Assembly: GCA_048571215.1 (NCBI GenBank) | Contig: CP182352.1 | Span: 832,001 to 896,000 of the forward strand | DNA: 64,000 nt | Direction: 5' to 3' | Source of the DNA: Halarcobacter sp. | GTDB lineage: Bacteria > Campylobacterota > Campylobacteria > Campylobacterales > Arcobacteraceae | Notes under the pieces: generated by a model | Database searches by the model: none | What the model was told of the DNA's origin: nothing | Seen by the model: only the letters and a program-made list of their open reading frames with translations | Shown here: positions 39,092-53,429 of the stretch, in pieces | How the letters are laid out: each line of letters opens with the position of its first letter | Numbering within the stretch: position 1 is the stretch's first letter | Made by a program: the position numbers and the translations under genes

Positions 39092-40177
39092 CTATAAAGT
39101 TTTTAAGGTTTTATTTATTAAGTTATTTGATTCTATGATTTTTGATAGATTTACCTCTTTATTTTGTATTAAATTGTAGATTGTATCAACTATGGTTTTT
39201 AGTTGTATTTTATCTAATTGGTTACCAAAGAGTAGAATATTTACACCTGAGTTTATTGCTAGTTTTAATGTTTCTTTTAGGGTGTAGTGTGAAGATATTG
39301 CTTTCATTTGTAAGTCATCACTTATGATTATCCCCTTATAGTTTAGATTCTTTCTTAGTAATTTTGTATTTATTTTATAAGATAGGGTTGCTGGATATTT
39401 ATTATCTAAATTTTTATTAAACACATGGGCTGTCATTATAAATTTTGCTTCGTTTGATTGGATTAGTTTTTTATAGGGGATTAACTCTTTTTCTTCCCAA
39501 GTATTTGTTATATCTACAAAACCTTTGTGGGAATCACTAGTTGAAGATCCATGACCTGGAAAATGTTTCAGTACAGAAAAAACTTTGTTTTTTCCCATTT
39601 GTTTTATAAAAGTTGAGGCATATTTTATAACTTCTTTTGGCTCATTTGAGTAGGACCTTTCTAATCCTACTATCACATGGTTTTTAGTATTAATAGCTAC
39701 ATCAACAACAGGAGCAAAGTTTAGGTTTATCCCTACATTATTAAGCTCTTTTGATAGTTTGTTATAGGTTCTTTTCGCATTTTCTATACTTTTTGTAGAT
39801 ATTTTATTGGCACTTGGATAATCAGAAAAACCATTTTTAGAATTTAGTCTTTGAACTTTTCCACCCTCTTGATCAATAGAGATAAGCATTTTGTAGTTTG
39901 AGTAGTTTTGAATATCACTAATCAAGGTTTTTAATTGTAAAGGATTTTTTATATTTTTAGTTTTTTTAGTTTTGTAATCTTTGTTAAAAAGTATCACTCC
40001 ACCAAGATTGTATTTATCAATATTTTCTTTTAGTTTTGAATTTAAAGTTTGGGAATCAAACCCTAATATAATAGTTTGCCCAATTAGTTTTTCTATCTGC
40101 TGTTTAGATAACTCTTTTGAATATAAAAAGCAGATAAAAAAACTTAAAACAAATAGAGTTTTAAATAACTGTGCCAT
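39092..40177 (-). CDS. Glycoside hydrolase family 3 beta-N-acetylhexosaminidase (NagZ-like, secreted)
   Basis: Signal peptide; DQEGG.V.R, KHFPGHG...DSH, SDDLQM. Confidence 0.9.
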   Translation of the reverse strand: MAQLFKTLFVLSFFICFLYSKELSKQQIEKLIGQTIILGFDSQTLNSKLKENIDKYNLGGVILFNKDYKTKKTKNIKNPLQLKTLISDIQNYSNYKMLISIDQEGGKVQRLNSKNGFSDYPSANKISTKSIENAKRTYNKLSKELNNVGINLNFAPVVDVAINTKNHVIVGLERSYSNEPKEVIKYASTFIKQMGKNKVFSVLKHFPGHGSSTSDSHKGFVDITNTWEEKELIPYKKLIQSNEAKFIMTAHVFNKNLDNKYPATLSYKINTKLLRKNLNYKGIIISDDLQMKAISSHYTLKETLKLAINSGVNILLFGNQLDKIQLKTIVDTIYNLIQNKEVNLSKIIESNNLINKTLKTL

Positions 40178-41426
40178 CTTCTAAAATAATCTTATTTCTT
40201 CCATCTTCTTTTGCTTGATATAAAAGCATATCAGCTTTTTGTATTGTATTATCATAGCAGTCATGGTTATTTCTTATTGCAACTCCTGCAGAAAAAGTTA
40301 CTTGTATCTTATTTGATTTATATACAAATTTATTATCATTTACAATTGCTTTTACTCTTTTAAGATATTTTAATAGTTCTCTTTTTAGATTAAAATGGAT
40401 TATTGCAACAAACTCTTCACCACCATATCTTCCAATGATATCTAACTCTCTAGTGCTTTTTGTTAATATTTTTGCAAAGGTTGATAAAACTATATCTCCA
40501 GCTTTATGTCCATAAGTATCATTTATATTTTTAAAGTGGTCTAAATCAAAAAAGACAATTGCATATTGTGTATCTGTTCTTTTATATTCATTATCTATTC
40601 TTTTTACAGCATCTTCATAAGCTCTTCTAGTCAAAACTCCCGTAAGGTGGTCTTTTAAGCTATTTTCTTTTGTTTTATCTAATTCTTCTTCAAGTTTTTT
40701 TATTTTTTGTTCTAGGGTTTCAACTTCAGATTTTCCATCATGTAGCTGTTTACCAACATTTGACATCTCATTTTCTATTGATAATGCTGCATCTATAAGT
40801 CTACTTTGTAAGTTTGTTAGTTCATCTAAGCCATTTTTACTTATGCTGATAGATTCTATTTGGGATTTTATATCTGAGACATTTTGTGAACCCTCACCAC
40901 TACTATGTATAGCGTCGCTAATACATTGTCCCATAAGTGTTAAAAGTTTTGCTACATCAGATGTTCTTTGTTTTACAACATTTCTATCTGCTTCAAATCT
41001 TTTATTTATAAACTCTTGCATCTCTTTTTGAATATCATCTTCAAAAAGTAAAGCAGGAGAATTACCAATTTTTACTGAAAACTTCTCTAAGTCCTTGTCT
41101 ATTTCTATACTAATTGATGGGGTGATAGATTCTTGGAAAAGTTGTGCTAAGTTATTTACATTGTCAGTTGCTATTCTATTTAATAAAATAGGTAGCATCT
41201 CATCCATTGTTGTAATATTTTTTGTTTTGATTTCAAGTTGTTCTTTCTCATTTAACTCTTGAACTAGCTGTTTAAATTGTTCACATTCATCAACACTAAG
41301 ATTGTAGATTTTTGATACCTTACAAAACTCTTTTTGATATGCAACAGGGGTAGCAGCTATATCTTGTTTATGTAGATTGCTTATAGTCTCTTTTTCTACT
41401 TTACTAACAACTTCTTTATCCATCAT
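40161..41426 (-). CDS. Cytoplasmic diguanylate cyclase
   Basis: DLDHFKNINDTYGH, RELD I-site, GGEEF. Confidence 0.92.
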   Translation of the reverse strand: MMDKEVVSKVEKETISNLHKQDIAATPVAYQKEFCKVSKIYNLSVDECEQFKQLVQELNEKEQLEIKTKNITTMDEMLPILLNRIATDNVNNLAQLFQESITPSISIEIDKDLEKFSVKIGNSPALLFEDDIQKEMQEFINKRFEADRNVVKQRTSDVAKLLTLMGQCISDAIHSSGEGSQNVSDIKSQIESISISKNGLDELTNLQSRLIDAALSIENEMSNVGKQLHDGKSEVETLEQKIKKLEEELDKTKENSLKDHLTGVLTRRAYEDAVKRIDNEYKRTDTQYAIVFFDLDHFKNINDTYGHKAGDIVLSTFAKILTKSTRELDIIGRYGGEEFVAIIHFNLKRELLKYLKRVKAIVNDNKFVYKSNKIQVTFSAGVAIRNNHDCYDNTIQKADMLLYQAKEDGRNKIILEDGTVI

Positions 41427-44047: not shown

Positions 44048-46603
44048 GTGAAAATGAGAGTTTTATTATTTATATTATTATTTGCAACATTTGTTTTTGC
44101 AGAAATTGCAAAAATTTCAACTATAGTTGGTGATGCAATGATACAAAGGGGAACTAAAGAGTTTAAGGTGAATTTGGGGACACTTTTAGAAAAAAATGAC
44201 ATAATTACAACAAAAAGCAATTCCAAGCTTCAAATTATATTTAATGATAATACAATTGTTACAGTTGGAAAAAGTTCTAAGTTTAATATAAATGATTATA
44301 TCTTTGATGAAAAAACACCACAAAATTCTAAAACAGATTTTCAACTTTTAAAGGGTACTTTTAGAGTAATCACGGGAAAAATTGGAAAAATTAATAGGGA
44401 TAAATTTAAATTAAAAGTTAAAAGTGCAACTATTGGTATTCGTGGTACAAACTTTATTGTACGATTGGAACGACAAGGTTTTTATGTAACAGTTACGGAT
44501 GGTGGGGTTTATATTACTCATCCAGATGCACCAGGTGAAAAAGTTTTAGTAGATAAAAATGAAACAGCTAAAGTTGTTGATGGAAAAATAGAAGTTTATA
44601 AAATAACTATAAAAGAAAAAAAAGATGAAGAGTCATCATTAGAGATAGAAGATGAAGATTCAAATTATGAAGATAGTTCTATTAAAGATTTATCTGATGA
44701 AAATGTTAACAAGAATATATCAACAACTAACACTACAAATAGTAGTGAAAAATCAACAATTGATACAGCTACAGATGTAACTGAAGAAACTGATAAAGAG
44801 ATTAATGCAAGTTCAAATATAAGTTTAAATGGAAAAATACTTGGTGCTTATATTGATGATTCATTGAGTGAACAACGAGCTTTTATTAGAAAAGAACAAG
44901 GTAATGCACTTAAAGCTACTAGAGTTAATGATAAACTTACAATTGATGATAAGATATCAAAAAAATATGAACAAAGTAATAGTAATCATATAGTAAACTT
45001 TACTGGAAATAGTTCAAATGCTGAACCATATGATACAGATAATTATACAGGAAGCTTAAGTGTAGGAACTTTCCCATTATCATATGAATATGAAAGTTAC
45101 TTAGGAAATAGTCAGTCAGTTAATAGTGAATATAATCTTCAAGCAGATAACTTAGGTGAATTTTTTATAGCGTATAAAGATAATGGAGGTTTTAAAGAGT
45201 TGTTTGTAGTTGGAAAAGATTCAACAACATCATCTTTTGATACTTCAAAAATATATTCTTATGATTCTTTTTCAGAGATAAAAGTTATAAAAGATAGTAA
45301 CTATAATATTAACTCTGTGGATATTATTTCAGATAAAACTGGAACACAATATTATAATCCATTGTATGATTCTTTTACTAATTTAAATTATAATTTTTAT
45401 GAAAAAGGTGCACAAGAGTTTACTTTTGGAGATAGCAATTCTGCCAATACTTATAGGAATAAATACATATATAGTACTTCAAGTGTATCAGGTAGTCAAA
45501 TTTTTTTAACTAATAAAGCTAGAATAGAAACAGCATCTTCAACAGCTGATATTTCTATTAAAGGTTCTAAATCACAAGGTTTGATGTATAGTATATCTAC
45601 AAATAATAGAGATACAAATTATTCTACAAATTCAACATCAACATCAACGATAGAGACTCTAGGGGGTTCTTATTTAGATAACAATGATTCTGTAACTGCA
45701 AACAATAGTACTACAAACTTACAATATAGTGGTTATTTAGTTGGGGAGATACATGGCAAAGATAATAAAAGAGAAACAAGTAATAACTTACAATTAAATA
45801 TAGAAAAAAATAGCACAGATAAAACTGTTAATATTTCAGCTAGTGGAACAATACTTGGTAATAGTGGTGTAGATTTAGCATTAGAGGGGAATTTAGGTAA
45901 TAAATCTGCATATTATATAAATGATGATTTATTTGGTGTAATGGGAAGTGAATCTATTTATAAGATTAGTTCTACTGATTATAACTCAGTAGATAATAGT
46001 GCTTATTTACTTGCAGTTCCAGATGGAGGATTTGATCTCAATGACAATCCACTTATGCTTGATGATGAGAGTTCCTGGGGATATTGGACTGCTAAGTTTG
46101 ATGATTCAAATGGAGGAGATATAACTTTTGTTGATACAAGTTCAACTTGGGTTGCTGGTGTTGAAACAGCTAGTTCTATAGTTGATAGTACTATGTTAAA
46201 TATTCCAGGAACATATGACTATAAAGGTCATGTTTTAGGAAATGTATTAACAGCTTCTGGAAATATAGGAAATATTATATATGGTAAATATAATGGGCTA
46301 GCATATACAAATAAAGTCAATTTAAGATTTGATATTGGTTCAGCAGTTAAAAATCTTACTGGTAATATAGAATTTTCATCAACAAACTCTAACTCAATTG
46401 TAAGTCAATGGAATTTAAGCTTAACTGGTACAAATATAGAAAATAGTAAATTTGGTGGAACTATATCAGGAAATGGTGGAACAGGGAGCTTTGAAGGTAA
46501 ATATTATGGTACATCAAGTGTAAAAAGTGTTGGTGGAACCTTTAACGCAACAAACTCATTAGGAGATAATGCTCTAGGAGTATTTAAGGCAGTAAAACAA
46601 TGA
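44048..46603 (+). CDS. Secreted FecR-domain protein with acidic linker and beta-rich C-terminus ending in a TbpB-like barrel motif
   Basis: Signal peptide without Cys; F.D.T..TVG, G.FRVITG, ATIGIRGT; C-terminal FEGKYYG...VGGTF...GVFKA. Confidence 0.75.
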   Translation: MKMRVLLFILLFATFVFAEIAKISTIVGDAMIQRGTKEFKVNLGTLLEKNDIITTKSNSKLQIIFNDNTIVTVGKSSKFNINDYIFDEKTPQNSKTDFQLLKGTFRVITGKIGKINRDKFKLKVKSATIGIRGTNFIVRLERQGFYVTVTDGGVYITHPDAPGEKVLVDKNETAKVVDGKIEVYKITIKEKKDEESSLEIEDEDSNYEDSSIKDLSDENVNKNISTTNTTNSSEKSTIDTATDVTEETDKEINASSNISLNGKILGAYIDDSLSEQRAFIRKEQGNALKATRVNDKLTIDDKISKKYEQSNSNHIVNFTGNSSNAEPYDTDNYTGSLSVGTFPLSYEYESYLGNSQSVNSEYNLQADNLGEFFIAYKDNGGFKELFVVGKDSTTSSFDTSKIYSYDSFSEIKVIKDSNYNINSVDIISDKTGTQYYNPLYDSFTNLNYNFYEKGAQEFTFGDSNSANTYRNKYIYSTSSVSGSQIFLTNKARIETASSTADISIKGSKSQGLMYSISTNNRDTNYSTNSTSTSTIETLGGSYLDNNDSVTANNSTTNLQYSGYLVGEIHGKDNKRETSNNLQLNIEKNSTDKTVNISASGTILGNSGVDLALEGNLGNKSAYYINDDLFGVMGSESIYKISSTDYNSVDNSAYLLAVPDGGFDLNDNPLMLDDESSWGYWTAKFDDSNGGDITFVDTSSTWVAGVETASSIVDSTMLNIPGTYDYKGHVLGNVLTASGNIGNIIYGKYNGLAYTNKVNLRFDIGSAVKNLTGNIEFSSTNSNSIVSQWNLSLTGTNIENSKFGGTISGNGGTGSFEGKYYGTSSVKSVGGTFNATNSLGDNALGVFKAVKQ

Positions 46604-47892
46604 AAAAAATAACAACAAGTTTATTATTAGCAACAACTTTATGCTTTTCAAGTGTAAGTTATGATGAGTCATTGAACTATTTTAAAAATAAAGAATATAA
46701 AAAATCTTTTGAAGGTTTTAACGAGCTTTTTAATAAAAATAGTGATGATACTCTTATCAATTTTTATTTAGGTAGAAGTGCTTTTGAATTAGGACTTTAT
46801 GAAATTGCCTTAAGTGCATATGATAGAGTTTTGATAAAAGAACCTGAAAATATTAGGGTTAGATTAGAAATAGCTCATACTAATATGAAATTAGGAAATT
46901 ATGATGAATCTATAAAAGAGTTCGAATTGGCTTTAAAATCTAATATGCCAAATCAAGTAAGAAATAGAGTTCTTCAAAATATTGAATTTATGAAACAAAA
47001 ACAACAAAAACATTTTTTTAATGTTACTACAATGTTTGGTATAATGTATGATTCAAATATAGATATAACTCCAGATGCCAACTCTTTTGATATTTATGTT
47101 CCAGCATTAAATACAACAGTTACTTTAAATAATACGAATAAAAAAGGTTCAACAATTTATCAAATGCTTGGAGCATTTAGCTATAAATATAAGTTTAATG
47201 ATAATTGGATTTTAGATAATAATTTAACTGCTTTACAAATGAAATATATAAACCATAAAGATAAAGATTTAGGTGTTATTTCTACTAGTGTTATCCCTTC
47301 TTATTATGCAAATAAATATAAAGTTGGTCTAGGATTTTTGTTTGATAAAGTACTTTTAGGTCATAAAACTTATCAAAATAATTATTACTTTAATCCTACA
47401 TACACTAGAGTTTTAGATGAAAGCATTTTGTATGAAACAGGTATAAAATATGGAAGAATAAATTATAAACAAGATGATACTAGAAGTTCAAATCTTTTAA
47501 GTATAACTAATAATATTAAATACCAAACACAAGATTATGGTTTATTTAGCTTTGATTTAAATTTAGGAAAAGAATATAAGGTAAAAAGTGGTAGAACAGA
47601 TGTTGAGTACAAGTTTGTAGAAACAGGTATTTCAAACTCTTATGATTTGATAAATGCATATACTTTAACAAGCTCTTTTAAGTATAAAAAAAGTATGTAT
47701 GAAGATACAGATATAAACTTTTTAAGCAAAAGAGATGATGATAAAATTGATTTATCATTAGGGGTTCAAAAAGCATTAAATAAAAATATGTTTATTAATT
47801 TTGGTGGAACATTTACTGATAATAACTCAAATCATGCTACATCTGACTATGATAAATATACTATAAAAACAAATCTATTTTATAGCTTTTAA
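46600..47892 (+). CDS. TPR + beta-barrel outer membrane protein (Slam/DUF560-like)
   Basis: Signal peptide; INFYLGRSA, AYDRVL, RVRLEIA TPRs; YDSN at barrel start; terminal YSF. Confidence 0.75.
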   Translation: MKKITTSLLLATTLCFSSVSYDESLNYFKNKEYKKSFEGFNELFNKNSDDTLINFYLGRSAFELGLYEIALSAYDRVLIKEPENIRVRLEIAHTNMKLGNYDESIKEFELALKSNMPNQVRNRVLQNIEFMKQKQQKHFFNVTTMFGIMYDSNIDITPDANSFDIYVPALNTTVTLNNTNKKGSTIYQMLGAFSYKYKFNDNWILDNNLTALQMKYINHKDKDLGVISTSVIPSYYANKYKVGLGFLFDKVLLGHKTYQNNYYFNPTYTRVLDESILYETGIKYGRINYKQDDTRSSNLLSITNNIKYQTQDYGLFSFDLNLGKEYKVKSGRTDVEYKFVETGISNSYDLINAYTLTSSFKYKKSMYEDTDINFLSKRDDDKIDLSLGVQKALNKNMFINFGGTFTDNNSNHATSDYDKYTIKTNLFYSF

Positions 47893-47898
47893 TAAAAT

Positions 47899-50070
47899 TT
47901 AGCTTTTAGTATTGTGTTCATAAACCCCATCAAAATCTTTTGGTGGGGTAGAGATATACTCTTTACATCTATTGATATAAATCTTGTATATATTTTTATT
48001 TGTTTTATCTTTTAGGTTTTCAAGTTCTTCAAAAATCTTTAAAGACTCTTTAAAATTTGATATTTTATAAAGTTCTATTGCCTTATGGTGAAGTTCAAGC
48101 TCCTCTTTTAGTTTTTGTGATGGTTTACCAAAATCTACAACTTGCCAGATCTCAACTGGTTCTTTTTTACCCTTTACTCTTACTAAATCTAAAAACCTAA
48201 AAATATATTCACCACTTAATTTATCTTTTGTAAAATGTGAAATATTTAGTCTTGAATCATAATATTTACAAAGGGATTCTAGTCTTGCACCTAAATTAAT
48301 AGCATCACCTATTACTGTATAGTCACTTCTACCAATACTACCCATCTCCCCAACAATAGCAACACCAGTATTTAACCCAATGCCAATATCTATAAAAGGT
48401 TTATTCTCTTTTTGATAAGTTTCATTTAATGAATCTAATTCTTTAATTTGTATTAACGATGCACTAACAGCTTTATCTGCATGATCTTTTACCTTTATAG
48501 GAGCATTCCAGTAGGCCATAATAGCATCTCCAATGTATTTATCAATTGTTCCTTCATATTTAGTTATTATATTACTCATTGGTTCCATATATTGATTTAA
48601 ATAGCTTATTAGTTTTTTTGCATCTCCCATTTGTTCAGAGATATTTGTAAAGCCTCTCACATCACTAAAAAATACTGTTACTTCTTTTTCCATAGCTTGA
48701 AATTCATTACTATCAATATTTTTTAATAGATTATCCATAACATCTTTTGATACCTTTGAAGCAAATTTTTTCTTAATAGCCTCTTCTTTTTTTATTTCAT
48801 AAAAGTAATCCATAAGTGTTACTACTGTTGAAGATAACAATATAGAAAGAAGTGGGAAGAAGATATTAAGTATTATGCCATAGGTAAATAATATCTTATA
48901 TAACAATATTATTACTGCAGATAATAAGCTTAATGTAATTATTGGGTTAAGCCAAAAAGGTGAATAGGTGATTAATAATATAGTTAGTATTGAAAGTGCA
49001 AAAATCAATATTAAGTTAATTGCATCATTTGAAGAGTTTTTTGATATAAAATCTCCTTGAATTATATTATCAATAACATTTGCATGTATTTCAACACCAG
49101 GATAAGCCGATTGAAATGGTGTTGACCTTAAGTCCATAAGACCAGCGGCTGATGTACCTATAAGTGCAATTTTCCCATCTAATTCTTTTGGAGATATTTT
49201 ATCATTTAATATATCTTTTGCAGAGATATATTTAAAGTTTCGCTCTTTTCCTCTAAAGTTTACTAAAATTCTACCATGCCTATCTGTTGGTATGGTTATT
49301 TGATTTAAACTAATATTTTCTACACCATTTTCATTATAATTTATAATTACTTTTTGACTTTGTGTAATCACTCTTATAACCTCTAAAGATAAAGAGGGAT
49401 AAATACTATCATCATAAGATATGACTAAAGGAACACTTCTAATTACACCTGATTTATCAGGTACAGTATTAAAAAAACCACTACTATAAGAGTTGTCTTG
49501 AATCTCTGGTACATTAAGTATTGTACCCCTTGCATTTAGAAGATAATCTTTGCCTAAGTTTTTATTTTTTTCTATAAAAATTGCAGGTATTTGAGGTGCT
49601 TTTTTATTTATATATTCATTATTATTAAATTCAAAAACATAACCTAATATTGTTGGAGTATTTGCAACTGTTTTTCCCAAAAGTTTGTCATAATTTGGTG
49701 GATTTTCATATTTGATATTGTATTTTTTAAACACTCTGTGGGGAGAACTTTTATCAGGTTCTGCAAAAACCATATCAAATGCAATTAAACCAATCCCATT
49801 TAAAGTTAATTTTTCTAAAAGTTCGGCTACTTTTGTTCTTGACCAAGGCCATTGACCAATCTCTTTTAATGAAGATTCATCAATATCAATTATAATTACA
49901 GAATTAGAGTTTGGCAATTCCCCTCTAATATTAAAAAAATAATCTCTTAGTCTATTATCAAAAGAATCAGGTAATTGTGAATAGTTTATATATATAAAAG
50001 ATAAGGTAAAAGATAGAATTATACCTATACCTAGTGATATAAAAATTTTTTTTATTGTTCTTTTATTCAT
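47899..50070 (-). CDS. CHASE2-domain class III adenylate cyclase
   Basis: IDIDE.S...GQWPW.R, D.VF.EP, GVEIHAN; TM helices; FSDVRGFT, DKYIGD, YTVIGDAINLGARLE. Confidence 0.92.
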   Translation of the reverse strand: MNKRTIKKIFISLGIGIILSFTLSFIYINYSQLPDSFDNRLRDYFFNIRGELPNSNSVIIIDIDESSLKEIGQWPWSRTKVAELLEKLTLNGIGLIAFDMVFAEPDKSSPHRVFKKYNIKYENPPNYDKLLGKTVANTPTILGYVFEFNNNEYINKKAPQIPAIFIEKNKNLGKDYLLNARGTILNVPEIQDNSYSSGFFNTVPDKSGVIRSVPLVISYDDSIYPSLSLEVIRVITQSQKVIINYNENGVENISLNQITIPTDRHGRILVNFRGKERNFKYISAKDILNDKISPKELDGKIALIGTSAAGLMDLRSTPFQSAYPGVEIHANVIDNIIQGDFISKNSSNDAINLILIFALSILTILLITYSPFWLNPIITLSLLSAVIILLYKILFTYGIILNIFFPLLSILLSSTVVTLMDYFYEIKKEEAIKKKFASKVSKDVMDNLLKNIDSNEFQAMEKEVTVFFSDVRGFTNISEQMGDAKKLISYLNQYMEPMSNIITKYEGTIDKYIGDAIMAYWNAPIKVKDHADKAVSASLIQIKELDSLNETYQKENKPFIDIGIGLNTGVAIVGEMGSIGRSDYTVIGDAINLGARLESLCKYYDSRLNISHFTKDKLSGEYIFRFLDLVRVKGKKEPVEIWQVVDFGKPSQKLKEELELHHKAIELYKISNFKESLKIFEELENLKDKTNKNIYKIYINRCKEYISTPPKDFDGVYEHNTKS

Positions 50071-52421
50071 CAGAAAAATAGTTTTGTTTTATCAAGTTGC
50101 TTTTCGCGAAGTTCTTCATTAACATATTTTTTTAACTCTTTACTATCATGGAAAAATTTAAGTAATTGACCGTCAATTTCTCCATCATTTACCATAAAAG
50201 ATAATATTTTAAAGACTTCTGATAATTTTTTGCCATCTTTATATGGTCTATCATTGGCTGTAAGTGCTTCAAAAATATCGGCCAAGTTCATTATTCTATC
50301 TTCTAGTGTTAAATCTTTGGCTTTTAGAGCTCTTGGATAACCTTTTCCATTTAGTTTTTCATGGTGATTTACTGCTATATCTAAAACTTTATTATATTTT
50401 TTGGGAAAGGGTAGAGTTTTTAACATATCAAGAGTTAGTTGAGCATGATTGTTCATTATTTCTTTTTCTTCTTCAGTTAGTGTACCTTTTTTTACAGACA
50501 GATTATAAATCTCATTTTCATTTAATATAGGCATGTTTTTGTTATTTTTGATATAAGTTTGTTTAGAGATCTCTTCAACTCTTTTTATATCTTTATCATC
50601 CATAAATTCAGCACCAATATTGGCTGATTCTAGAAACTTTAAATCATCATTTAATTTAGAAATAGAAAATTCAAATTGCTCTTTTGAAATAAGGTTTTTC
50701 AAATACTCAATCTCTTTATCTCTTTTTATTATCTCAAATCTCTCTTTTACAAGTTCAATTCTATCTATCATACTTTCTAATTTTGTAGATTTATCTATTA
50801 CAGATTCGGGCATTGAAATTTTCCCTATATCATGCATCCATGCAGCTAGTTCTATTTGTCTAAAGTCATTTTTACTATAATTAATATCTTTATAAAGAGT
50901 TTTATCTTTGTGAATAGCCATGGCAAGATAGTTAGCAATTTTCGCAACTTTAGCAATATGTTTTCTGGTATGTTTTGATTTTGCATCTATAGCATGGGCA
51001 ATTGTTGCAACAAAAGAGTTTAAAAATTCTTCTAAATTATTTAATAAATAACTATTTGTTAGAGTCATAGCAGCTTGACTAGCTAGTGATTTAAGTGTTC
51101 TTTCATCTTCTTCGCTAAAAGAGATTATATATTTTGACACCTTTGTTTTATTTATTAGTTGTAATACTCCTATTACATCTTTTTCATGATTTACTAAAGG
51201 TACGACTAACATAGATTTTGACCTATAACCTGTCGATTTGTCAAATTTTTTTGTACCATTAAAATTATAGTTCTTTTCATCATAAACATCAGGAATATTT
51301 ATAATTCTATTTTCTAATGCTGATGTAACTGCAACCATGTTTTTATTTTCACTACCATCTTTTAAGTATAGTGGTAGTGAATCCCACGTAAGATTATCTT
51401 TTGTACCACCCATTTCAATATCTAAAACAGTATTTTGGACAACTTTAAAATCTAAATATTTTTTATCTTTTGAAACAATATACAAAGTACCAGCTTCACA
51501 GTGAGTAAGCTCTCTTGTAAGGGTTAAAATCATTTCAAAAAGTCTATTTTTATCAAGTTCACTAGATAATTCTATATTTATATCCATGATTCTTTCAAAC
51601 TTGTTGTGACTTATGGTATCCTCTTCAATCTCTCCCGTATCCATATGGATAACATCACCTTGTTCAAGGATTTTCCCACCATTTGAAAGTATATTTAGTT
51701 TTTGTATATCTTTTTTCATCTCTTCATAATAAGAAGTTTTTAGATGATAAATAAAAATTTGTAAGTCATCTCTTTTTAGATAAGTATCAATCTCATTTTT
51801 TAAAATTTCAGGAGTAAAATGTTTGCTAGTTTGTGCAAGTTTATTTTGATATGAGGGGAAGGAACACTCTACGAGTAATGACTTAATCTCATTATTATTG
51901 TTTATCAAGTCCCATAAGTCAGGATTTTTATATGTATCTCCACTTATTATATAACCATTTTTAAAATCTTTTATAATCAAAAAACCTAAAGAACCTTCTA
52001 TATGATTTGCTGAGATTGCTGTTATACAAAAAGGATCTATTTGTACTGTTTCATTTTCTTCTATAACTTTAAAAATTAAGGCTTTTTTATCTGAATCTAT
52101 AAGATTTATTTTTGAAAAATCAGGCCAAATTTTATCATTGAAAGTGTGTTTTTTTAAAGATTCAATTGTTGGTTTTGAACCATATATAATTAAAGGTACT
52201 TTTCTTTGTTCATAAAAACTTTCAATAATAAATGGCAAATCATTAATATGGTCAGAGTGAGAGTGAGTTAAAAAAATATGATTTATATCAAAAGTTTTGT
52301 CACCTAAAGTGTTTATTACATTTCCAGCATCGATTAAGATATCTTTATAAATTTGAAATGAGGTAGTACCTGTAAGTTTAGTTTTGTTTCCACTAGCCCC
52401 TAAAACTTTTAAATAATTCAT
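50070..52421 (-). CDS. Class II (MBL-fold) cyclic-nucleotide phosphodiesterase-GAF-HD-GYP fusion
   Basis: LIDAG, THSHSDH, ECSFP; GAF (D..TGYRSKSML..P, GVLQLINK); HDIGK, HHEKLNGKGYP, ADIFEALTA.DRPY. Confidence 0.88.
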   Translation of the reverse strand: MNYLKVLGASGNKTKLTGTTSFQIYKDILIDAGNVINTLGDKTFDINHIFLTHSHSDHINDLPFIIESFYEQRKVPLIIYGSKPTIESLKKHTFNDKIWPDFSKINLIDSDKKALIFKVIEENETVQIDPFCITAISANHIEGSLGFLIIKDFKNGYIISGDTYKNPDLWDLINNNNEIKSLLVECSFPSYQNKLAQTSKHFTPEILKNEIDTYLKRDDLQIFIYHLKTSYYEEMKKDIQKLNILSNGGKILEQGDVIHMDTGEIEEDTISHNKFERIMDINIELSSELDKNRLFEMILTLTRELTHCEAGTLYIVSKDKKYLDFKVVQNTVLDIEMGGTKDNLTWDSLPLYLKDGSENKNMVAVTSALENRIINIPDVYDEKNYNFNGTKKFDKSTGYRSKSMLVVPLVNHEKDVIGVLQLINKTKVSKYIISFSEEDERTLKSLASQAAMTLTNSYLLNNLEEFLNSFVATIAHAIDAKSKHTRKHIAKVAKIANYLAMAIHKDKTLYKDINYSKNDFRQIELAAWMHDIGKISMPESVIDKSTKLESMIDRIELVKERFEIIKRDKEIEYLKNLISKEQFEFSISKLNDDLKFLESANIGAEFMDDKDIKRVEEISKQTYIKNNKNMPILNENEIYNLSVKKGTLTEEEKEIMNNHAQLTLDMLKTLPFPKKYNKVLDIAVNHHEKLNGKGYPRALKAKDLTLEDRIMNLADIFEALTANDRPYKDGKKLSEVFKILSFMVNDGEIDGQLLKFFHDSKELKKYVNEELREKQLDKTKLFF

Positions 52422-52531: not shown

Positions 52532-53429
52532 TTATTTGTTTGTTTCATCTTCATCATTCATATTTAGATCATCATACGGATCCATATGAATATTTATAAC
52601 CCACTCTCTTTTAGAGTTTATTTTTTTTATATTATCTTCAATTCTATCACTAACTCTATGGGCTTCCATTAGTGTAATAATACAATCAAATACTAAATGA
52701 ACTTCAACAAAAGTTTGATGTCCAGCTTCTCTTGTCTTAAGCATATGGTAGGTATTTACTCTATTTTCATCTTTTATGATTTTTACAATTTTTTCAACTA
52801 CATTTTCATCTGCTGCTCTATCAAGAAGAACTAAAATACCCTCTTGAATGAGTTCATAAGCTGAATAGATAATAAATAATGATATACCACCCACCTACTA
52901 TTACATCAATAATCTCATAACCAGTAAAATTAATTAATACAAGAGATATTAAAACTGCAAGATTTGTGTAAACATCAGTTTTATAGTGAAGTGCATCAGC
53001 TTTAATTACCATATTATTAGTATTTCTAGCTACTTTATTTAAGTACAATACCAATGAAATAGTAATTACTAATGAGATAATCATAATTATAAGAGAAGTT
53101 CCTAAATAAGTGGAAACCTCTCCATTTATTGCTTTTTTAATTGCTTGATATAATAAAAAAAGTCCAGAAACTGAGATAATAGTTCCCTCAATAACAGAGG
53201 CTAAAGCTTCAATTTTACCTCTACCATAGTTAAAAGTTTTATCAGCAGGTTTTTCAGCATTGTTAATAGCAAAGTAGTTAAACACAGATACAAACATATC
53301 CAAAACTGAATCAATTGCCGAAGCTAAGACGGCAACTGATCCACTTGCAATTCCTACTACAAGTTTTAATACAGTAAGAAGTGCAGCTACACTACTTGAA
53401 ACTACGGTTGCTTTTTTTTGGGCAGTCAT
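52532..53429 (-). pseudogene. Cation diffusion facilitator (FieF-like) split by a +1 frameshift
   Basis: AIDSVLD, YGRGKIE, DALHYKTD in ORF1; EVHL, EAH, IHMDP in ORF2; extra base in CCC at 52890-52892. Confidence 0.85.

Follow-up and report, generated by a model that had tools for sequence, protein, structure and literature searches.

Four adjacent genes of Halarcobacter sp. (Arcobacteraceae) raise the question of whether an exported protein held in an outer membrane pore could control a CHASE2 adenylate cyclase across the cell envelope. The window analyzed here is a 64,000-nt stretch of assembly GCA_048571215.1 (contig CP182352.1, positions 832,001 to 896,000 of the forward strand). A preliminary description of this DNA had proposed that a FecR-TbpB-like cargo is displayed through a Slam-like barrel and switches cAMP synthesis by contact with CHASE2, in a self-contained circuit.

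Two convergent gene pairs

The open reading frames (Table 1) were borne out, with an ATGA overlap between P0001 and P0002 and a TGA/ATG overlap between P0003 and P0004. The pairs converge on stops 6 bp apart (47893-47898) and sit, as described, between housekeeping genes for an ABC-F-type ATPase and a cation-efflux protein. GC content is 0.24 to 0.29 across the cluster, similar to that of the flanks. Residues of P0001 are numbered from GTG 44048; the likelier start is ATG 44054, 5 nt after AGGAG. Pfam searches identified FecR in P0001 (E = 1.6e-15), CHASE2 (E = 2.3e-63) and Guanylate_cyc in P0003, and PDEase_II, GAF, and HD_5 in P0004, all of which had been expected. For P0002 the TPR part of the expectation held, but SlipAM scored 18.7 bits against a cut-off of 22. 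A scan for promoters and terminators stayed at chance level (65 versus 66.8 expected). One RNA run contained 7% of the words and yielded patchy, short contigs, which do not count as evidence of expression.

Table 1. Genes and predicted features of the cluster (positions in the window)
Feature	Position	Strand	Description
P0001, exported cargo	44048..46603	+	851 aa from GTG 44048; signal peptide that lacks a lipobox, followed by a FecR-like head, a disordered linker, and TbpB-like lobes
FecR-like beta-solenoid head	44102..44650	+	Residues 19-201
Gly133-Thr134, predicted autocleavage site	44444..44449	+	Aligns with E. coli FecR G181-T182
Acidic/Ser-Thr linker, candidate pore-threading segment	44651..44806	+	Residues 202-253; predicted disordered, pLDDT <50
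TbpB-like C-terminal lobe with a handle and an 8-strand-type barrel; predicted domain for T11SS targeting	45722..46600	+	5kkx, Z 14.4
P0002, Slam/DUF560-like outer membrane protein	46600..47892	+	430 aa; TPR residues 21-135, predicted 14-strand barrel residues 138-430
P0003, CHASE2 class III adenylate cyclase	47899..50070	-	723 aa; TM, CHASE2 25-364, 3 TM, catalytic 462-642
P0004, class II (MBL) cNMP phosphodiesterase + GAF + HD-GYP	50070..52421	-	783 aa

The genes are conserved together as two cassettes

Profile searches of 151 genomes of the family detected CHASE2 in 103 and the FecR-like profile in 101. Both were present in 100 genomes and both were missing from 47, while 3 contained only CHASE2 and 1 only the FecR-like profile, so that presence and absence agree in 147/151 genomes of a set whose members are kin and not independent. 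The linkage of CHASE2 and FecR-like genes is far beyond chance, and the co-conservation anticipated in the preliminary description was confirmed. One genome (G150) was scored as containing both on weak, stop-ridden matches; the three CHASE2-only genomes are fragmented assemblies. Class II phosphodiesterase (PDE) genes were found in 104/151 genomes, including, by hand count, 95 of the 103 with CHASE2.

Gene neighborhoods were compared in two overlapping sets of loci. The CHASE2 set took 60 of 138 matches, picked for long contigs. Among its 46 loci from the clade of the window, cargo and barrel lay inside the 20 kb in 33, the PDE part in 35, and all four genes in 26. The FecR set took the best 80 of 318 matches and comprised 76 named loci. 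The barrel was present in 73 of these, CHASE2 in 34, and the full set of four genes in 22, within flanks of 8 kb that were in many cases ended by contig ends. The two gene pairs share a strand in 32/58 loci, and gene order varies too. In several complete genomes, cargo and barrel are distant from the cyclase, and we therefore regard the unit as two cassettes. Cargo, barrel, and CHASE2 are each single copy in the Halarcobacter genome, which also encodes a second cyclase (HAMP-type), a second MBL-GAF-HD protein, and seven cNMP-binding proteins. To call the circuit self-contained was thus an overstatement. We think it very probable that the four genes act in the same pathway.

Relatives occur in the Arcobacteraceae and in other Campylobacterota, with the profile present in 31/285 genomes sampled outside the family. 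Free-living Campylobacterota often carry the module, so surface sensing may be its usual role.

P0001 combines a FecR-like head with TbpB-like lobes

The model of P0001 (pLDDT 83.5) shows a head, a disordered segment (residues 202 to 253), and beta-rich lobes, and the signal peptide is the only hydrophobic segment. By structure comparison, residues 48 to 201 of the head match the periplasmic domain of PupR (6ovm; Z 17.8, rmsd 2.3, 139 aligned) and residues 17 to 114 match the cell-surface anchoring domain of MpIBP (5ix9; Z 9.9, rmsd 2.3, 74/76 aligned). A head profile also matched 5ix9 (E = 0.0033); a PDB search with the single head sequence gave no match. A LapA-type retention module by family criteria was rejected, as NF033682 (retention_LapA) scored 19.9 bits (E = 6.5e-4) against a cut-off of 50, and the likeness to 5ix9 is one of fold only. 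A low-hydrophobicity stretch of at least 30 aa is present in 87/95 cargos.

Fold and profile comparisons agree on the TbpB-like C terminus that had been proposed. Residues 559 to 851 align with the TbpB C-lobe (5kkx; Z 14.4, rmsd 3.9, 207 aligned), residues 261 to 851 align over two-lobed TbpB with a Z of about 13 and a high rmsd, and the C-terminal profile matches TbpB at an E value of 1.9e-13. PF01298 was detected in 14/42 aligned homologues and is absent from P0001 itself. P0001 thus has the TbpB_B_D-type C-terminal barrel, the signal peptide, and the adjoining outer membrane protein gene of a type XI secretion system (T11SS) cargo. Atlas matches to the middle region of the cargo (0.82) include TbpB/HpuA and serve as a lead only. 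Among 104 complete FecR proteins encoded no more than 3.5 kb from a barrel, 82 matched the C-terminal TbpB-like profile. Inspection by eye of the 22 without a match found the motif in 10, left 1 unclear, and showed 4 to be broken and 7 to be short proteins (271 to 316 aa) that lack the motif. A lipobox was absent from all 136 FecR-like relatives, which rules out a lipoprotein cargo. The reading of P0001 as a FecR-TbpB-like cargo stood for both ends of the protein. Not recognized in it were the resemblance to a retention domain, the predicted Gly-Thr cleavage site, and the naturally occurring split there.

P0002 is a predicted Slam-like barrel that probably exports the cargo lobes

The AF2 model of P0002 (pLDDT 92.7) contains a TPR domain and 14 counted strands, which we take to be the strand number of Slam barrels; the proposal of a Slam-like barrel is supported by this prediction. 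The nearest folds are CymA (Z 22.9) and OmpG (Z 20.9), and no chain titled Slam was among the fold matches listed. In a group of 28 relatives, TPR_Slam was matched by 27 and SlipAM (PF04575) by 8 (best E = 2e-7). Across 42 loci, similarity of the cargo barrel tracks that of the Slam barrel (partial rho 0.44) and not that of CHASE2 (0.03), in weak correlations of pairs that are not independent. Slam moves only unfolded cargo and reads a C-terminal motif (PMC9090332), and the pairing of cargo and pore is set by the C-terminal barrel (bioRxiv 2023.03.15.532718). P0002 probably exports the lobes of P0001.

In one clade, the FecR-like head is naturally split at a conserved Gly-Thr site

E. coli FecR cleaves itself between G181 and T182; its two parts remain together and come apart only on a signal (PMC12036975). 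In the family HMM, this site falls on GIRG|T, i.e., G133-T134 of P0001, in a weak match of 66 residues (E = 4.6e-5 against one sequence). Of 136 distinct relatives, 121 have GT, 3 have GS, and 2 have an RGT that the regular expression missed, and the remaining 10 end exactly there; G-T/S is thus kept in 126/136. An HMM of the segment after the threonine, searched against 2,549 ORFs, found 11 that lie directly downstream of truncated genes (E = 1.7e-12 to 6e-3). It also recovered, two times, the latter half of a single frameshifted cargo, and the next match had an E value of 1.1. A separate signal peptide is predicted for each of the 11 downstream ORFs, and each shows an ATGA overlap. The split loci flank CHASE2 cyclases and gave no barrel match. 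Ten split N-halves form one clade with support of 100/100 (tree of 75 rows, loci L005-L085, 113 columns), which indicates one event. Atlas matches to the tail of the split partners (0.79, SPOR in 21% of members) are a lead only; Pfam detected no SPOR in the 10 split partners.

The split suggests that the FecR-like domain can work as two chains divided at the Gly-Thr bond. We consider self-cleavage of the cargo head likely. The site is, however, a general trait of the FecR family and has been called nonconserved among sigma regulators (PMC7186176), so its conservation may be structural.

Self-cleavage also allows a different role, in which residues 134 to 851 pass out completely, by release or shedding, while the 13-kDa N-half stays behind in the periplasm and acts on CHASE2, so that cAMP would report the rate of export and not an outside ligand. 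Unlipidated T11SS cargos are released (PMC12282271), the relatives here have no lipobox, the linker follows the cut, and in the split clade a separate gene for the exported N-half neighbors CHASE2 cyclases. We nevertheless judge this role unlikely. The halves of FecR stay together until the signal arrives, and the retention-domain likeness with its conserved long linker suits tethering better. The outer lobes also vary, at total lengths of 354 to about 2,991 aa, as ligand binders would.

The N-half covaries weakly with CHASE2

The input sensed by CHASE2 domains has been described as unknown (PMC5192318). In the 42 loci, the N-half is the most conserved part of the cargo (mean identity of 0.52 versus 0.27 to 0.29). 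Its similarity tracks that of CHASE2 (partial rho 0.38) and also that of the TPR domain of the barrel (0.52), in nonindependent pairs for which no significance is claimed. FecR-like genes also adjoin CHASE2 proteins whose output is GGDEF, HD-GYP, or a kinase (loci L060 and L063/L064), as in Burkholderia, where a LysM-FecR protein accompanies a CHASE2 kinase (PMC5192318). This suggests that the link follows CHASE2 and not cAMP. At one CHASE2-HD-GYP locus (L061), SH3 and M48 take the place of FecR. We are inclined to think that the head acts on CHASE2.

Two other readings were weighed. In one, the cyclase responds to a different input, cAMP regulates the expression of a T11SS adhesin pair, and the proteins make no contact. 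This would fit the convergent arrangement here and the opposite strands in 26/58 loci, the frequent distance of cargo and barrel from the cyclase, the seven cNMP-binding proteins in the genome, and the S. meliloti FecR gene smc02177, which is a target of Clr and not a sensor (PMC5498481). We regard it as decidedly improbable in view of the other outputs paired with FecR-like genes beside CHASE2 (PMC5192318) and of NsrA, which acts upstream of CyaK (PMC7529298).

In the other, the receptor is the barrel, with the FecR head docked on its periplasmic TPR domain and relaying to CHASE2, and passage of the lobes is incidental or absent. The covariation of the N-half with the TPR domain is consistent with such docking, as are the seven short FecR partners that adjoin a barrel without a TbpB-like end and the gene upstream of S. 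meliloti cyaK, in which FecR, TPR, and barrel are fused. The TPR covariation may instead reflect cotransfer of a two-gene cassette, the TbpB-like end profile occurs in 82/104 barrel-linked FecR proteins (and by eye in about 10 more), and the NsrA-type barrel does not match the present barrel profile. We think this receptor role quite unlikely.

Cyclase and phosphodiesterase point to coupling of cAMP and c-di-GMP

P0003 contains D470 and D515, presumably the metal-binding Asp pair; K511 and T585, which we take to be the purine residues; and N592 and R596, the presumed Asn/Arg residues. The DKYIGD (K511) and YTVIGD (T585) motifs cited in the preliminary description are present, supporting an ATP-type class III cyclase. 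The purine-site Lys is found in 85/85 cyclase relatives and the Thr in 67/85, the other 18 being unparsed. Lys and Thr at these positions rule out a guanylate cyclase. P. aeruginosa CyaB is the best match to P0003 (E = 1.4e-34), and a PDB search with the CHASE2 profile gave no match.

P0004 contains HSHSDH, NK...F...DE (residues 424 to 440), MHD, and HHEKLNGKGYP motifs. The class II PDE motif of the MBL domain, HxHxDH, is present in 56/59 relatives, and the protein matches yeast Pde1 (4ojv, E = 1.6e-9) and the GAF-HD protein 4mcw (E = 9.4e-34). HD and GYP motifs were found in 48/50 and 45/50 relatives, respectively. The GAF domain matches those of PDE5 and cyclases, and its NKFDE-type motif, which we assume to mark cNMP-binding GAF domains, is found in 41/50 relatives. 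MBL and GAF-HD are encoded separately in some relatives, by genes on either side of the cyclase. P0004 had been proposed to reset the signal. It probably does more, including output, because a GAF domain of predicted cNMP type is fused to HD-GYP. We infer from these motifs that P0004 hydrolyzes cAMP and carries out cAMP-regulated hydrolysis of c-di-GMP, which suggests cAMP-to-c-di-GMP coupling inside one protein.

A proposed tethered sensor

We propose, tentatively and with chances that we put just short of even, that the cargo stalls in the Slam-like pore and that its self-cleaved periplasmic head controls CHASE2. The cluster would then encode an envelope-spanning unit in which the barrel exports the TbpB-like lobes and the head remains in the periplasm as a plug. 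It would be built from four genes that are co-conserved and contain the expected domains and catalytic motifs. Since the protein would leave Sec N terminus first, the head would fold early and cut itself at G133/T134, with the halves remaining associated as in FecR. The C-terminal barrel would target the cargo to its cognate pore, where the lobes fold outside, the linker occupies the pore, and the head is blocked. A ligand or a pull on the outer lobes would then move or split the head, and the conserved N-half (residues 19 to 133) would gain or lose contact with CHASE2, changing cAMP synthesis in either direction. Finally, the MBL domain would clear cAMP, and cAMP bound to GAF would tune the turnover of c-di-GMP by HD-GYP, so a motility/attachment switch would probably be one output, and Crp-family proteins might be another.

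Our confidence in the separate steps (shared pathway, export, self-cleavage, action on CHASE2, and retention) is correlated. Retention of the head as a plug, drawn by analogy, seems to us an even call: all T11SS cargo known to us passes the pore completely, and the idea of retention is borrowed from a shared fold. Also against the tethered sensor are the SlipAM score below the cut-off, the possibly structural conservation of Gly-Thr, the origin of the split in one event in one clade, the short FecR proteins near a barrel (7/104), and the covariation of the N-half with the TPR domain. In S. meliloti, moreover, the FecR-domain protein SMc02177 and the TPR protein SMb20495 are dispensable for perception of the shoot signal (PMC5498481).

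A broader reading makes FecR-like heads the general protein ligand of CHASE2 sensors, each cleaving itself at Gly-Thr and tied to an envelope layer, with a pull or ligand parting the halves as in adhesion GPCRs. The tie would be stalling in the T11SS pore here and OmpA, LysM, SPOR-like, or NsrA fusions elsewhere. We offer this as speculation that is rather unlikely. On this reading, the system would be a sigma-free bacterial surface-contact sensor and Slam pores would be used for signaling; we know of T11SS only in the export of nutrient, immune, and adhesion proteins. With its predicted self-cutting head, the cargo would supply a protein trigger, open to testing, for the long-unexplained CHASE2 sensor domain, and the cluster provides sharp handles in residue T134, fragment 19-133, linker 202-253, and one barrel.

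Comparison with known systems

The four-gene cluster is already known in Campylobacterota as an in silico pathway (PMC9239204; mBio 2022), in which the same CHASE2 cyclase, PDE, FecR-domain protein, and TPR protein were placed with reference to NsrA. The earlier statement that no characterized example exists in this phylum thus holds for experiments but not for in silico description. That account differs in calling the FecR protein an outer membrane protein and the barrel a TPR protein, and T11SS/Slam, TbpB lobes, retention, and self-cleavage were not found in its available text. Our literature searches, with subscription journals largely outside their coverage, found neither the retention-domain likeness followed by a disordered linker nor the Gly-Thr site and natural split in this cluster. 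They also found no reading of the PDE as an output (class II PDE + GAF + HD-GYP), nothing on class II PDE, HD-GYP, GAF, and cAMP in Arcobacter, and nothing relevant on CHASE2 and Slam together.

In T11SS/Slam (DUF560) systems with TbpB, LbpB, or HphA cargo, a TPR-barrel protein likewise accompanies a Sec-exported protein with a TbpB-type barrel end. The present cargo differs in its FecR head and lack of a lipid anchor and is tied to a cyclase, not to TonB uptake. No assignment of this cluster to T11SS was found in the papers searched, nor in the supplementary files of two surveys of T11SS (PMC8406197 and PMC12282271); in the available text, FecR, CHASE, and cyclase are absent from the main text of both and CHASE2 from both supplements. 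Network cluster 9 of PMC8406197 includes one DUF560 protein from Sulfurimonas.

The analogy to NsrA-CyaK drawn in the preliminary description was supported. NsrA is an outer membrane protein needed for signaling through CyaK in S. meliloti (PMC7529298). The gene upstream of cyaK, taken to be nsrA from its position and size, encodes 1,190 aa with FecR (residues 66 to 160, with RGT), TPR, and barrel. Both systems would supply a CHASE2 cyclase with an outer membrane-linked protein that has the same head. The NsrA type is one fused chain with a larger barrel, which gave no match to the present barrel HMM, and no TbpB-like cargo, whereas the present cluster divides these parts between two genes.

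With FecR anti-sigma regulators (CSS), the head shares a periplasmic beta-solenoid with a Gly-Thr site, the site alignment being the weak one given above. Unlike them, it is predicted to be soluble and exported and lacks a TM helix, an anti-sigma domain, and an STN partner, and the cluster contains no ECF sigma or TonB receptor gene. The RsgI system, in which autoproteolysis is a precondition for signaling (PMC10328401), is a mechanistic analogy with an Asn-Pro site in another fold. The proposed tether resembles that of LapA and MpIBP (T1SS), in which a folded N-terminal plug and a flexible linker hold a surface protein in its pore; the LapA retention module, modeled on 5ix9, tethers the adhesin in this way (bioRxiv 198937). 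They belong to another secretion system, and LapA is cleaved by LapG.

Divided FecR heads at comparison loci

At the comparison loci with split FecR heads (see the table), two overlapping genes, both predicted to be exported, encode the FecR head, and the break falls precisely at the Gly of the predicted autocleavage site, Gly133-Thr134 in the window cargo. The CHASE2 cyclase gene is divergent from the split pair, of which L080 has two in tandem. The tail of the second gene may be SPOR-like, which we take as a lead only. The 142-aa FecR proteins stop ∼8 residues past Gly-Thr. An OmpA-family protein is encoded directly after them in L034 and L023, and in L060 an ankyrin-OmpA gene follows, adjoining CHASE2-HD-GYP. 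This is possibly a second split, with the remainder of the FecR domain carried by the OmpA protein; a search of the OmpA proteins for that remainder, using a profile of the segment downstream of Gly-Thr, gave no significant match (E values of 2.9 to 4.3).

Cargos, barrels, and genomic context

The giant cargos combine a FecR head and a TbpB-like end, as in the window cargo; in L077 the cargo-barrel pair occurs twice, one copy after the other. SPOR matches in barrel N-terminal extensions (E values of 2e-7 in L072 and 3e-3 in L036) suggest that some pores are anchored to peptidoglycan.

The flanking cation-efflux (CDF) gene occupies two frames in the window versus a single ORF of ∼295 to 300 aa in relatives, and is a frameshift or sequencing error. 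The nearby GGDEF gene, whose synteny is kept in relatives, is a possible counterpart to the HD-GYP domain of the cluster.

CHASE2 with other outputs or partners

In L061, M48 peptidase and SH3 genes take the place of the FecR partner. L063 and L064 have the same FecR-CHASE2 pairing as the window, here with a predicted c-di-GMP output.

Coordinates of features in the window, its genome, and comparison loci
Feature	Location	Strand	Remark
Split FecR heads	L055:10474-11483; L057; L059:10465-11327; L062; L080-L085
142-aa FecR proteins	L034:15507-16523; L023:16418-17437; L060:10354-12026; L036; L038
Giant cargos	L077:3397-14776; L078:5066-10249		2991 aa; 1727 aa
Barrels with N-terminal extension, SPOR matches	L072:1715-5182; L036:11600-13174; L007; L015
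CDF gene	window 52532-53429	-	191 + 120 aa
GGDEF diguanylate cyclase gene	window 40161-41426	-	two genes past ABC-F ATPase
Second MBL-GAF-HD-GYP paralogue	L171:5976-8369		797 aa; window's genome, outside window
HAMP class III cyclase, then TPR protein gene	L172:4487-6980		window's genome, outside window
CHASE2-HD-GYP, M48 peptidase gene, SH3 gene	L061:7979-11680
TPS-domain haemagglutinin, membrane-anchored FecR/Ig protein, CHASE2-GGDEF	L063:5041-11095; L064
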